Origin: a virus
UHGV virus genome: UHGV-1352852
DNA: 44,165 nucleotides
Direction: 5' to 3' (one strand)
The translations under genes and the position numbers were made by a program. Below, one piece after another: positions 13,237-16,533 of this stretch. Every line of letters begins with the position of its first letter. The first letter of the stretch is position 1. The notes below the pieces were generated by a model that was not told the origin of the DNA, did no database searches, and saw nothing but the letters and a program-made list of their open reading frames with translations.

Positions 13237-13758
13237 ATGGTTACTACAGTAATTACTTTCCCTGCGTATGTAGGGGCGAAAATATGCAGGGCTAAAAATG
13301 ATGTTCGCTACTATTTGAACGCTTTTTACATAGACCCTGAAGGATTGATAGTGTCTACGGACGGTCATAGATTGTTCTGCGACAATGTGAAGACCAACGT
13401 TGAGAAAGGGACTCTCATAGACATCAAAGGGAGAGAGCCTTCTAAATTTAACTACGCGGAGGTAAACCACGACAACGGCAGTGTATCTTTCTATGACGAT
13501 AATCGTGCGCTTATATGTACACTTCCGGTAGATGTTGTAGAAGGAAACTTTCCTGACTGGAGACGCGTGGCGCACATCACACCGGGTGTTGTCGATAGTA
13601 TAGGGTTCACCCTGCGTTATTTGGCAGACGCGTACAAGATTTCTAAGGCATACAAAAATGAAATTGCTCGTTTCGATTTCCAGGACCAAACCAGAGGATG
13701 TAAAATACTATTTTCAAACACGGCCTTTATGGTGTTAATGCCTGCGCGATTTAAATAA
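13237..13758 (+). CDS. beta sliding clamp (DnaN)-derived mini-protein
   Basis: Carries DnaN hallmark motifs in order: DVRYYLN, TDGHRL, GNFPDWRRV, IGFTLRYLADA and C-terminal FMVLMPARF (compare E. coli DnaN DVRYYLNG, TDGHRL, GRFPDYRRV, IGFNVSYVLDV, YVVMPMRL). AGGAGA RBS; terminator downstream. Confidence 0.7.
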   Translation: MVTTVITFPAYVGAKICRAKNDVRYYLNAFYIDPEGLIVSTDGHRLFCDNVKTNVEKGTLIDIKGREPSKFNYAEVNHDNGSVSFYDDNRALICTLPVDVVEGNFPDWRRVAHITPGVVDSIGFTLRYLADAYKISKAYKNEIARFDFQDQTRGCKILFSNTAFMVLMPARFK

Positions 13759-13785: not shown

Positions 13786-14247
13786 TCATTCTGGCTTAGT
13801 GACCTTCGCCGCTTTACTGAAGGCCTCTACGCCATCGGCATCGGTAACCTTGACGAAGTATTCACCGACTGCATTAACCGTCAGAGACAAAGCCTCTTCA
13901 GGTGCGTTTACCACTTCCTTACCGTCTTTGTACCAGGTCAGCACATATGGCGCTTTACCAGCCTTAACTTCGACAGTGAGAGTCGCGCTGCCGTCTGTCA
14001 GTTCGGTATCCTGCGGTTGCGCAGAGAAATACACGTCTCCAGCGTCTGCCAGATACGGAATCTCGTAAAGCATACCTGCGGTCGGTAGCGCAATACCAGT
14101 TTTATCTGCAAACGGCATATCGTCTACAGGTGTACCGAGTACACTTTCATCTTCAATAAATACCACGTTCTCACCGGAGCCAGACACACGGGCGTACTGG
14201 ACTACGCGACGCGACGGTACGTCAGTTACTTTGAAAAAGCCCATCAT
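13786..14247 (-). CDS. Ig-like domain structural protein
   Basis: Segment TLTVEVKAGKAPYVLTWYKDGKEV...GEYFVKVTDADG is Ig-like; downstream of the head-morphogenesis gene. Confidence 0.45.
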   Translation of the reverse strand: MMGFFKVTDVPSRRVVQYARVSGSGENVVFIEDESVLGTPVDDMPFADKTGIALPTAGMLYEIPYLADAGDVYFSAQPQDTELTDGSATLTVEVKAGKAPYVLTWYKDGKEVVNAPEEALSLTVNAVGEYFVKVTDADGVEAFSKAAKVTKPE

Positions 14248-16184
14248 TATTCCCCTTTCAGATAATCAGCAACACGTTTATCGAGTTCCGCCATCTGCTT
14301 AAGCGTGAGCGGACGCCCAAAACCATCTACAGATATTACGCGAAACTCCTCTGGTGATATACCGCTGTTACGGAAAATCTTACCGCGAACAGGGCCGAGC
14401 GCCTGGTCCTGAAACCATGCGGGCTGTTGTTTAAGGAACTCGTAGTAGGTTGTGTCCGCGCTTACCTGAGTACCGCCGTCCGCCCCGCGTGCCGCGCGTT
14501 TTGCGCCTTTATCAAGGAAGTCGAACTCCGAGCTAATCACCGGGGCCGTGGTACTTCTGCAATTCGGATGCGCTGGCGGCATCGGCCCTTTTCCAATTTC
14601 CCACGTCATTCCGTCTCTGGCCCTGCAATTCTTGACTATCGCACTACCTGCTGTATAATATCCTTGACTACTAGAGAGGGTATAAACATGGCACGTTCTA
14701 AACTCGACGCTTATGCGGATGATATTTGTTCTTTGTACCGAGATGGCACTCCCGCCAGCATCATAGCCAAGAATTACGGCGTCACTACCACCACGGTAAC
14801 AACATTTCTCAAGAAGCTCGGACTCATGCATGATCGACCCCGTGGTTGGGTTTCTAACGACACCATTTTGAATCAAAAAAGGGCTATAGAATTGTTCGAG
14901 TCCGGCGTCCCGCCTATTGAGTGCATAAGAAGGACCCAAGTAAGCAAAACAGTTTTCTATTCTATGGTCAAAACACTTGGCCTCGCTAAGCGCGGGCACA
15001 CTCACAGGACATTCACCCCGGAGGAGAAAATCGCCAGAGCTATCGTCCGACAGCAAAGCGGCGCTATGAATAAGACTGAAACCCTCGCTTTTGAATTGTT
15101 TAATTCCGCTGGCGTGGACGTAGTTCCGCAGTTTGCAATCGGCCCGTACAATGTCGATTTTGCCATTGAGTCCCACTCCATCGCCATAGAAATCTGTTGC
15201 CGCGGGACTCGTGCTTACCATTTTCCTGATGGGGAAATCAGCGAGCGTATTAAAAATATAATCCGCTCTGGCTGGCATGTTTATGTTCTTCACTGTTTCG
15301 AGCACAGTCACTTTGTCAACAGTGGTATACAAGACATGCTTAGTTGGATCGAGTTCATCAAGCGGAGTCCATCCGTATTGCGTGAGTACAGGGTGTTTCG
15401 GGGTGCCACTGAACTTCTCGCCGTTGGAAAGTTCGATGGTAAAGATTTTTCCTGAATAGAGTCCGCGCATTACCGCGTCCATCCCCGCGATGGGCGCTAA
15501 TTCTGTTTCAGCCGTGAAACACGTTGTACTGGTACGGCTGTCCAGCGTTGACACCCACTCGTATTTCTCGATGATGTCGTCGTTCTGGCGGTACGTCTCG
15601 TTACGGGCTTCGTTGGATACGTGAGCCAGCGCCGTACGTATTACGGTAGCGGCGTTACGCTCAGAGATGTCGGCCAGTCCGCCAGCGCCTACAACATTCT
15701 TAACAATCTGCCGTGTGGTTTGACCCTGAACAAAGCCCATCTTAACGCCAGTTACCAGGCGCGATACTTCTGTTTCACCCCAGCCACCCATCAGCTTAGT
15801 GAAATCTACTGGCTTGTCGCTTAACGACAGAGGCTGAAACTCGGCAGCGGCCCACACCTGTTCGGCAGTAGGCGTAACAAATTCAGCGTTGACGTTGGCC
15901 GTGAGTGTCTTTACATTCCACTCAGCCTCATACGCCGCCAGGTCCTTAAGGTCTTCTGTCAGCTTTGTTTGCCAGTCACCCGTAAGTCCTGTCAGTGCTT
16001 CTTCTAGGTCGCGTAACAATTTATTCAGTCGCGCAGTGCTTCGCCCGTCGTCACCGAATAACAGCACCTGCCGTTTGATTTCATCCCGCATCTCCTGAAT
16101 GAACGGTGTGAGGTCTTTCACTTCGCCGGATGCGGTGCGTTGCAGCCATATCTGGTGGCTGATTAGGGATGTAAGTAAGCTCAT
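14247..16184 (-). CDS. head morphogenesis protein (Mu F / SPP1 gp7-like), intein-containing
   Basis: Track ORF 14247..16241; ATG at 16184 (MSLLTSL) with GGAGGG RBS. C-terminal PPAHPNCRS motif typical of the Mu F family; central ~300-aa insertion with intein motifs. Confidence 0.7.
   Translation of the reverse strand: MSLLTSLISHQIWLQRTASGEVKDLTPFIQEMRDEIKRQVLLFGDDGRSTARLNKLLRDLEEALTGLTGDWQTKLTEDLKDLAAYEAEWNVKTLTANVNAEFVTPTAEQVWAAAEFQPLSLSDKPVDFTKLMGGWGETEVSRLVTGVKMGFVQGQTTRQIVKNVVGAGGLADISERNAATVIRTALAHVSNEARNETYRQNDDIIEKYEWVSTLDSRTSTTCFTAETELAPIAGMDAVMRGLYSGKIFTIELSNGEKFSGTPKHPVLTQYGWTPLDELDPTKHVLYTTVDKVTVLETVKNINMPARADYIFNTLADFPIRKMVSTSPAATDFYGDGVGLNGKIDIVRADCKLRNYVHASGIKQFKSEGFSLIHSAALLSDDSSGDFLLRGECPVSVPALSEAKCFDHRIENCFAYLGPSYALNRRDAGLEQFYSPFLIQNGVVRNPTTGSIMHESELLEKCCYRGGSDAVILGYDAGGSAISVQRTNIIRISVEFRTCHVYTLSSSQGYYTAGSAIVKNCRARDGMTWEIGKGPMPPAHPNCRSTTAPVISSEFDFLDKGAKRAARGADGGTQVSADTTYYEFLKQQPAWFQDQALGPVRGKIFRNSGISPEEFRVISVDGFGRPLTLKQMAELDKRVADYLKGE
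14632..14659 (+). promoter_or_regulatory. sigma70 promoter TTGACT-N16-TATAAT for the intein-embedded endonuclease gene
   Basis: Near-consensus -35 and -10 hexamers read directly; GAGAGGG RBS follows ~8 nt before the ATG at 14688. Confidence 0.55.
14688..15455 (+). CDS. homing endonuclease-like protein: two HTH motifs + Vsr-like (DUF559) PD-(D/E)XK nuclease domain
   Basis: Internal ATG of track ORF 14427..15455. HTH segments SIIAKNYGVTTTTVTTFLKKLGL and IECIRRTQVSKTVFYSMVKTLGL; C-terminal core YNVDFAIESHSIAIEI...GWHVYVL; encoded antisense within the intein. Confidence 0.6.
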   Translation: MARSKLDAYADDICSLYRDGTPASIIAKNYGVTTTTVTTFLKKLGLMHDRPRGWVSNDTILNQKRAIELFESGVPPIECIRRTQVSKTVFYSMVKTLGLAKRGHTHRTFTPEEKIARAIVRQQSGAMNKTETLAFELFNSAGVDVVPQFAIGPYNVDFAIESHSIAIEICCRGTRAYHFPDGEISERIKNIIRSGWHVYVLHCFEHSHFVNSGIQDMLSWIEFIKRSPSVLREYRVFRGATELLAVGKFDGKDFS

Positions 16185-16228
16185 ATGCCCTCCTGTAGTA
16201 TCGCCAGTGTAACGCATAAAAATAATAT

Positions 16229-16257
16229 TTGCAGACACCAATATAATAGGGTACTAT
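16229..16257 (+). promoter_or_regulatory. sigma70-like promoter TTGCAG-N17-TACTAT with embedded palindrome
   Basis: Third near-identical copy; leader shares TATCGAAACGAGA with the copy at 26613. Confidence 0.5.
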
Positions 16258-16291
16258 TCAGCTATCGAAACGAGAGATAAGGGATTTAAAG

Positions 16292-16504
16292 ATGAAAGAA
16301 TTAATTATCGCGGTATTGACGACACTGGCAGTTTCACTGGTAATTGCTGCTGGTGTACGTAGCTTAGATAAACACGGGTGTGAGAACTACGGAGATGTCA
16401 CAGGCAGAGAGGTAATGTATAGTTACACAACTTGTTATGTGAAAACTGATAGAGGTTTTATCCCTCGTGAAGAACTTAATTTCAGAGCAGCGACACATGA
16501 ATAA
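16292..16504 (+). CDS. small membrane-anchored protein, moron
   Basis: 70 aa; N-terminal TM segment LIIAVLTTLAVSLVIAAGV then a short Cys-containing domain; AAGGGA RBS; terminator downstream. Confidence 0.5.
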   Translation: MKELIIAVLTTLAVSLVIAAGVRSLDKHGCENYGDVTGREVMYSYTTCYVKTDRGFIPREELNFRAATHE

Positions 16505-16505
16505 A

Positions 16506-16532
16506 ACTAAGGCCCCGAAAGGGGCCTTTTTC
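16506..16532. terminator. bidirectional rho-independent terminator
   Basis: Hairpin AGGCCCCGAAAGGGGCCT flanked by an A-run and TTTTT; lies between the convergent 16292 gene and the portal gene. Confidence 0.55.
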
Positions 16533-16533
16533 T

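Follow-up and report, generated by a model that had tools for sequence, protein, structure and literature searches.

The minor head gene of the phage genome UHGV-1352852 raises the question of what lengthens its product by some 300 residues, and what is encoded by the long open reading frame (ORF) that faces this extra segment on the opposite strand. The genome, a stretch of 44,165 nucleotides (nt) called here the window, originates from a Kagunavirus (Guernseyvirinae), a siphophage of E. coli. The extra segment is probably a composite mobile element, in which a class-1-type intein inserted into the MuF head gene carries a homing nuclease gene on its antisense strand.

The insertion in the minor head gene

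The gene product matches Phage_Mu_F in Pfam (E=6.8e-9) and the head morphogenesis family PHROG 241 (E=5e-146), and its MuF orthologues are annotated as minor head proteins. The precursor comprises 645 aa and the predicted spliced product 347 aa. The original prediction, made from the sequence alone, held that the protein is ~300 aa longer than expected. Alignment with the intein-free orthologue of phage K1ind2 bears this out, revealing a single clean insertion of 298 codons (CFTAETEL...AIVKN) between ...DSRTST(T/I) and CR(A/V)RDGM. The interval first assigned to the intein, 14625-15521, contains a real insertion but wrongly included the +1 Cys codon (14625-14627), and the intein proper occupies 14628..15521. 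The intein-less insertion site of the K1ind2 type is ...AGTACGATT|TGCAGGGTC..., and the intein-free MuF DNA of this type reads ...GACAGCCGCACCAGTACGATT|TGCAGGGTCAGAGACGG... around the insertion point. A megablast search with the head gene retrieved 202 related phage records, only 4 of which contain the intein; in the others, some 200 phages, the head-gene match is split in two pieces with ~900 nt skipped. The +1 Cys column is invariant in the protein alignment with K1ind2, in intein-plus and intein-free alleles alike, and the alignment places the insertion within the most conserved MuF motif, immediately before this conserved Cys. A group I intron and a simple in-frame domain insertion were also considered and rejected, since neither fits a reading frame that runs on uninterrupted, with Hint motifs and exact Cys...Asn|Cys junctions.

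The ordered Hint signatures proposed earlier are all present: Cys1, block B with T40-P-K-H43, C-terminal Asn298 and Cys+1, as in class 1 inteins. Cys1, Asn298 and Cys+1 are retained in all 13 homologous elements aligned, which were extracted from phage and metagenome loci. In the intein family alignment T40, H43 and T47 are invariant, and H278, V279, Y280, L282 and N298 are conserved in the C-terminal lobe. A profile of 11 inteins matches solved inteins (Mtu RecA, Ssp and Npu DnaB, Pho RadA, PI-PkoII) with a best E-value of 2e-9, and the family profile aligns the N-terminal Hint lobe with the RecA mini-intein block. With the intein frame as query, a word-indexed protein search yielded no more than two partial proteins; the 11-intein profile yielded 15. 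The AlphaFold (AF2) model, built with 14 homologues, is beta-rich at residues 1-70 and 259-298, with a predicted local distance difference test score (pLDDT) of 75-94, and inteins or Hint domains account for all 50 of the top 50 Foldseek matches of this model in the PDB. On these comparisons of sequences and models the insertion is a Hint-type intein, for which splicing is predicted.

The centre of the intein frame (residues 129-258) has no homologues detectable by protein search and cannot be aligned among family members. Together with its low pLDDT (Table 1), this indicates that it is a stop-free passenger linker rather than an endonuclease domain.

The nuclease gene on the opposite strand

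A plus-strand ORF of 255 aa (14688..15455) with two helix-turn-helix (HTH) motifs and a Vsr/DUF559-like core had been proposed within the intein. The ORF is present, and profiles and the AF2 model agree with this description. A profile of 32 members of the nuclease family matches the structure 3hrl (E=5e-7), the tandem-HTH protein 2lvs (E=2.2e-14) and also a resolvase HTH. A Pfam scan of the same members detected HTH_7 in 27 and MTES_1575 in 20 of them. The AF2 model, based on four sequences only (mean pLDDT 74), consists of two three-helix HTH units followed by an alpha-beta-beta-beta-alpha-beta core. The defining features of the Vsr-type fold and of the DUF559/MTES_1575 branch of the PD-(D/E)xK (restriction-endonuclease-like) superfamily were both found. 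The E-D-x-H-D composite motif of the I-Bth0305I family is absent, and the N-terminal DNA-binding region consists of the tandem HTH instead of NUMOD-type modules. No PHROGs family corresponds to the nuclease, apart from a weak HTH match. Asp157 and Glu168 do not vary, and Glu131, Gln148, Asn155 and Arg187 hardly do, in the window clade as well, where Arg172 is also invariant. Exhaustive phmmer searching yielded 996 clusters of nuclease homologues (50% identity) at E<=1e-3, mostly 230-300 aa long.

The nuclease gene and the intein share the same codon register. In this register, stop codons in one frame correspond to TTA, CTA or TCA (Leu, Ser) in the other and can be avoided synonymously; it is the sole antisense register in which stops are avoidable purely via synonymous Leu/Ser choice. 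The window nuclease gene contains none of these three codons among 16 Leu and 19 Ser codons (P about 7e-4 to 1e-3, computed from the codon usage of the window phage). In the other long genes of the window, none of 3576 segments of 255 codons has this antisense frame open.

Selection on the two frames was compared by counting differing codons between the window and L018, an IMG/VR relative with 73% nuclease identity and a gap-free alignment. Over the central 164 codons, 49 differences are non-synonymous in the intein frame only and 6 in the nuclease frame only, with identities of 0.72 (nuclease frame) and 0.46 (intein frame). The central intein segment (residues 129-258) shows 11 synonymous and 89 non-synonymous differing codons in the sense frame. 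The pattern is reversed in the 23 intein codons (1-23) outside the nuclease ORF, with 0 non-synonymous in the intein frame only against 8, and the C-terminal block F/G is 95% identical. The centres of the Snoke and VSe101 elements behave likewise: 16 synonymous and 8 non-synonymous codons in the nuclease frame, 4 and 20 in the intein frame. The selected frame thus switches along the element, from the intein frame at the ends to the nuclease frame in the centre. Between window and L018, identity is 0.6-0.8 in both frames over the last 45-100 nuclease codons, which face the N-terminal Hint lobe, and two-sided constraint on two folded domains spans roughly 130-300 nt. According to the original prediction, coding on both strands is required over about 770 nt. 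Over this length the two frames are indeed open and presumably both translated, but the centre is conserved in the nuclease frame only.

The most conserved C-terminal motif of the nuclease, (E/Q)YRV(x)RG, lies exactly opposite block B TPxHPVLT (15381-15407), and either strand may drive the conservation of these 27 nt.

The expected TTGACT-N16-TATAAT promoter and ribosome-binding site inside the intein are both present as sequences, and their activity is predicted. The promoter-like site falls within the coding sequence of intein block G, and the same hexamers occur at the same position in the metagenomic relatives L013 and L014 (45-53% nuclease identity to the window). The Shine-Dalgarno sequence is the reverse complement of the block-F Leu codon CTC plus the following base; (G/A)AGG at equal spacing was found in 12 of 13 elements, and this Leu is encoded by CTC in 9 of 12. 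The ATG of the nuclease is the reverse complement of the codon CAT for His278 in block F (CHVYTL), and this His is encoded by CAT in each of the 12 elements that have it, GC-rich actinophages included.

An ORF opposite a coding sequence need not be a gene; it could simply mirror, free of stops, an endonuclease domain conserved in the intein frame. Sense motifs are in fact mirrored on the antisense strand (DFHGD..EVEIV against YNLDFA..VAVEV, TPxHPVLT against EYRVxRG), and the plus-strand ORF is called in none of the annotated records. Hardly any weight can be given to this explanation, because the central substitutions leave the plus-frame residue unchanged and alter that of the minus frame (49 vs 6; 15 vs 3), the plus-frame protein matches independent non-intein families and solved structures, the centre of the minus frame is homologue-free, unalignable and predicted to be disordered, and the start codon and Shine-Dalgarno sequence are kept even in GC-rich actinophages. 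Since fold, family size, conserved context and substitution pattern agree, the plus-strand ORF is read as a true gene that encodes a tandem-HTH nuclease of Vsr/DUF559 fold, whose activity is predicted.

Table 1. Features of the MuF gene, the intein and the antisense nuclease gene in the window
Feature	Position	Strand	Basis and remarks
MuF / SPP1-gp7-like minor head (head morphogenesis) gene	14247..16184	-	ORF list, Pfam, PHROG, orthologue annotation
N-extein, MuF residues 1-221, end ...LDSRTSTT	15522..16184	-	Alignment with intein-free K1ind2
Intein, 298 aa, Cys1 (15519-15521) to Asn298 (14628-14630)	14628..15521	-	Exact insertion relative to K1ind2; MuF residues 222-519
+1 Cys of C-extein, predicted splice-junction nucleophile; C-extein continues to stop at 14247	14625..14627	-	K1ind2 alignment
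N-terminal Hint lobe, intein residues 1-70, block B GTPKHPVLT at 15381-15407	15312..15521	-	AF2, family alignment
C-terminal Hint lobe, residues 259-298, blocks F/G CHVYTLSSSQGYYTAGSAIVKN	14628..14747	-	AF2 pLDDT 78-94, conserved residues
Central intein-frame segment, residues 129-258	14748..15137	-	Stop-free, unconserved, predicted disordered; pLDDT 23-38
Antisense homing-endonuclease gene (predicted), 255 aa, same codon register as intein	14688..15455	+	ORF, register, homologues, substitution pattern
Tandem HTH DNA-binding region, residues 7-96	14706..14975	+	Profile, Pfam, AF2
Vsr/DUF559-like nuclease domain, residues 129-249	15072..15434	+	Asp157 (15156-15158) and Glu168 (15189-15191) invariant
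Sigma-70-type promoter-like site, TTGACT-16 nt-TATAAT	14632..14659	+	11/12 consensus positions, top match in region; predicted start near 14666
Shine-Dalgarno GAGG, 8 nt upstream of ATG	14676..14679	+	Sequence
Terminator-like hairpin, 20 nt past nuclease stop	15475..15497	+	9 pairs, 6 G-C; weak; in N-terminal intein coding region

Occurrence, spread and proposed mechanism

A tblastn search of phage genomes with the nuclease gave matches only in MuF-type head genes. Relatives were retrieved with clade-specific nuclease alignments; the broad 32-sequence alignment lacks a conserved stretch. All 51 loci examined have the nuclease gene antisense to a MuF head gene, inside the intein and in the same register, with both frames open. 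The phage cases checked are Snoke, VSe101, Fosterous and Malisha (Gordonia), Sejanus (Mycobacterium), Aaphi23, Idiomarinaceae phage 1N2-2, a Vibrio phage and Cronobacter ES2. The arrangement was also found in three short metagenome contigs, seven IMG/VR contigs and 31 loci of bacterial genomes or metagenome-assembled genomes (MAGs), which belong to Proteobacteria, Planctomycetota, Gemmatimonadota, Armatimonadota, Chloroflexota, Firmicutes, Actinomycetota, Bacteroidota and others. Overall, the surveyed hosts comprise Enterobacteria phages and prophages or MAGs from >10 phyla.

Two nuclease clades track two MuF insertion sites: enzymes with CCRGT are found at LD.RT..|C, as in the window, and those of the GGxWH type at HPN|C..N|CRC, the latter in Snoke, actinophages, Aaphi23 and genome loci. 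This correspondence fits site-specific recognition.

A second, distinct MuF intein is located 19 codons downstream of the window site (PPAHPN|C) in coliphage Snoke (L004, 1456..2205) and in Jerseyvirus genomes, e.g., L009 (PMC6776784). About 35 records of Salmonella and E. coli phages have this Snoke-type intein, and on its antisense strand lies a separate nuclease gene of the same family, ~25% identical. The two MuF inteins were not found together in any of the loci examined.

A broader reading, to which roughly even chances can be assigned, is that the family of HTH and Vsr-like nucleases is an obligate antisense resident of MuF inteins: one ancient, co-evolved two-strand mobile element found in the phages and prophages of many bacterial phyla, with ~1000 clusters (50% identity), a fixed register and a start codon, ribosome-binding site and promoter complementing blocks F/G. 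The currently proposed origin is, by contrast, rare independent invasions by free-standing nucleases.

Over the 894 positions of the intein DNA, the window shows 0 differences from fEg-Eco06 and from an IMG/VR contig, and 2 from vB-Eco-KMB36, while the flanking MuF extein DNA of these intein-bearing phages is only 88-92.5% identical. The extein identity among intein carriers is no higher than to intein-less K1ind2 or to Snoke. Divergence restarts 18 nt after and 28 nt before the intein junctions. Near-identical intein DNA in diverged genes points to recent horizontal spread with short co-conversion tracts, and implies a working mobility function. The nuclease is in this respect what a homing endonuclease should be, a protein encoded in a (predicted) self-splicing element with signs of the horizontal spread of that element. 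The extein residues -2/-1 (15522-15527, minus strand) are Thr-Thr (ACA ACG) in intein-plus and Thr-Ile (ACG ATT) in intein-less Kagunavirus alleles; the Thr-Thr pair could be a product of donor co-conversion, or the -1 residue could be adapted for splicing.

Several observations speak against interpreting the locus as a functional composite element. Single-sequence Pfam scans remain under the curated cut-offs on both strands, with 21.8 bits for Intein_splicing (PF14890; cut-off 35.8) and 20.1 bits for MTES_1575 (cut-off 38.2), so that family alignments are needed for significance. The penultimate intein residue is Lys297 in place of the usual His of block G (HN). Such a His is common, though not universal, in active inteins. 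The original prediction was right about this Lys, but it is unremarkable, since the position is occupied by K, H, R or S across relatives. The window clade of nucleases has CCRGT where the wider family has GGxWH, and lacks the His that, by a correspondence based on sequence alignment only, is the general base of Vsr and EDxHD enzymes. The chemistry of the window-clade nuclease may therefore be different or impaired, and the enzyme is not filed under EDxHD but regarded as a Vsr/DUF559-fold nuclease with a variant active site. The conservation of the expression signals is not assignable to one strand, because promoter and Shine-Dalgarno sequence overlap the constrained splicing blocks F/G. Finally, in a pattern scan terminator-like hairpins occur in the region at a chance-level count.

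With the catalytic His missing and two HTH domains that by themselves could bind DNA, the nuclease gene might be real and once have served homing, but now be inactive or have another role, e.g., that of a DNA-binding regulator, the intein being spread by ordinary recombination. This is unlikely, given the conservation of Asp157, Glu168 and the other active-site positions including the clade-invariant Arg172, and given the purifying selection on the nuclease domain. Moreover, 100% identical intein DNA in 88-92% identical genes, with divergence 18-28 nt off the junctions, is the pattern of break-induced homing and not of random recombination.

The absence of the penultimate His also raises the possibility that the insertion does not splice and is tolerated as a large surface loop of the MuF protein, like the 'ShiLan' methylase insertion that hides an out-of-frame HNH gene; read-through insertions with hidden nuclease genes do exist (PMC11855218). 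For the window this is very unlikely: apart from that His, the splicing residues are in place and conserved, as is the Hint fold, intein codons 1-23 are under purifying selection relative to L018 and block F/G is nearly unchanged, and such a loop would interrupt the most conserved MuF motif right before its conserved Cys.

The composite element would then operate as follows, splicing, plus-strand transcription and cleavage specificity being predicted from the features described above. The 645-aa precursor would be translated straight through the intein, and the two Hint lobes (residues ~1-70 and ~259-298) would pair across the long unstructured linker. Cys1, Asn298 and the +1 Cys would release the intein and join the exteins as ...DSRTSTT-CRARDGM..., which re-forms the most conserved MuF motif; the expected spliced junction peptide is ...TSTT-CRARDGMTWEIGK. 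The plus-strand gene would be expressed independently from its near-consensus sigma-70 promoter, with its ribosome-binding site and possibly a terminator (the chance-level hairpin), to give the 255-aa product. In a mixed infection the nuclease would most likely cut intein-less MuF alleles at or near the insertion site, and repair from the intein-bearing genome would copy intein and nuclease gene together, resulting in homing.

Known systems and biological meaning

The arrangement was at first not known to have been described, but the literature does contain it. The same intein, 900 bp long, was reported in 2024 in the minor head gene of vKMB36 (PMC11162368), and the GenBank records of vB-Eco-KMB36 and fEg-Eco06 are labelled 'minor head protein with inserted intein'; the intein DNA of these phages is 99.8-100% identical to that of the window, and the Snoke-type intein resides in the same gene. 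The plus-strand nuclease gene is neither annotated nor mentioned in these two records, in PMC11162368 or in PMC6776784.

Antisense VSR-like endonucleases in actinophage inteins, with evidence of ongoing transfer, were described in 2025 by Gosselin, Arsenault and Gogarten (bioRxiv 10.1101/2025.01.02.630785), who reported exclusively non-canonical endonucleases in the minor capsid (MuF) inteins of actinophages, a set restricted to PhagesDB. These inteins resemble that of the window in being contiguous, with an opposite-strand VSR-like ORF between the splicing blocks, where endonucleases are usually inserted, and an in-frame middle without recognisable structure. By tblastn, the window nuclease has homologues (E 4e-10 to 7e-12) among the ORFs that run antisense to the MuF genes of Gordonia phages. 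The window differs from the set covered there in its enterobacterial phage host genome, the insertion site LDSRTSTT|C and the CCRGT variant of the active-site loop. Text searches of the preprint found no discussion of a fixed register, of shared ATG/His and Shine-Dalgarno/Leu signals or of an internal sigma-70 promoter. As far as these searches show, several points appear to extend what is described there: the presence of the element in phages of enterobacteria and in many phyla, a register that never varies, the start, ribosome-binding and promoter signals that the two genes share, and the frame-switching selection.

The antisense strand of the MuF genes of the Gordonia phages Affeca and Angelicage is matched by the window nuclease (E about 1e-10). 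A sentence of the preprint on endonuclease VII-like HENs names a cluster of 'Angelicase, Affeca, Keitabear, Sedona' (bioRxiv 10.1101/2025.01.02.630785); how the inteins of Affeca and Angelicage are classified may merit re-examination.

Antisense LAGLIDADG endonucleases in inteins, namely Ssp DnaX and a Chloroflexus SpoVR-like protein (Gorbalenya 1998; Gogarten 2002), are cited in the same preprint. Compared by their description there, they likewise place the endonuclease opposite a contiguous intein, with another nuclease family and other host proteins. PMC8966425 was considered as a precedent for an antisense gene and rejected, since its 'opposite strand' concerns cleavage sites and not gene orientation.

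In fractured genes, free-standing Vsr-like (EDxHD) nuclease genes are located between the halves of split inteins (Dassa et al., 2009; PMC2677866), and I-Bth0305I has been characterised (Taylor et al., 2011; PMC3239194). These systems and the window element alike comprise a Vsr-fold homing nuclease encoded as a separate gene with its own control elements inside a phage intein. In fractured genes, however, the host gene is broken in two and the intein acts in trans, whereas the window intein is contiguous, because its nuclease gene is antisense and the intein frame reads through. Unlike the fractured-gene nucleases, that of the window would bind DNA by its predicted tandem HTH and not by NUMOD motifs, and the catalytic His is absent in its clade. 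The ShiLan-type insertion (PMC11855218) is similar in that a homing nuclease gene overlaps a read-through insertion with the host frame open; there, however, the gene is an out-of-frame HNH on the same strand of a phage methylase insertion without detectable splicing domain, whereas the window has a Hint domain and all junction residues.

Two regions adjacent to the MuF gene were also noted. The MuF-portal spacer (16185-16533) is ~350 nt long, low in GC (0.40-0.43), and contains an ORF of 70 aa (16292..16504, plus strand) with an N-terminal hydrophobic segment and no Pfam match. In fEg-Eco06 and KMB36 the gap at this position is only ~70 nt, and EC3-1 alone among phage records shares most of the insert; the spacer resembles a variable 'moron' slot. 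An ORF of 173 aa (13237..13758, plus strand), which lies downstream of the Hoc-like decoration gene and on the strand opposite to it, weakly matches the central domain of the DNA polymerase III beta-clamp (E=0.007), and its Snoke orthologue is annotated as a sliding clamp by HHpred.

For the family as a whole, the arrangement means that the gene responsible for the mobility of a widespread group of inteins, being on the opposite strand, is systematically overlooked by intein annotation pipelines. The arrangement provides a clean natural example of two opposite-strand, presumably translated frames, with selection handed over along the element and expression signals of one gene inside catalytic motifs of the other. 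The nuclease itself, combining tandem-HTH recognition with a small Vsr-like domain, is an uncharacterised, predicted site-specific enzyme. In a lytic phage of E. coli with a sigma-70-type promoter, splicing, antisense expression, cleavage and homing are testable by standard tools, which would be harder in actinophages. If the nucleases are indeed obligate antisense residents of MuF inteins, they would form one of the largest protein families with a coding sequence wholly opposite a second translated frame, for which the coliphage copy would offer a tractable model.

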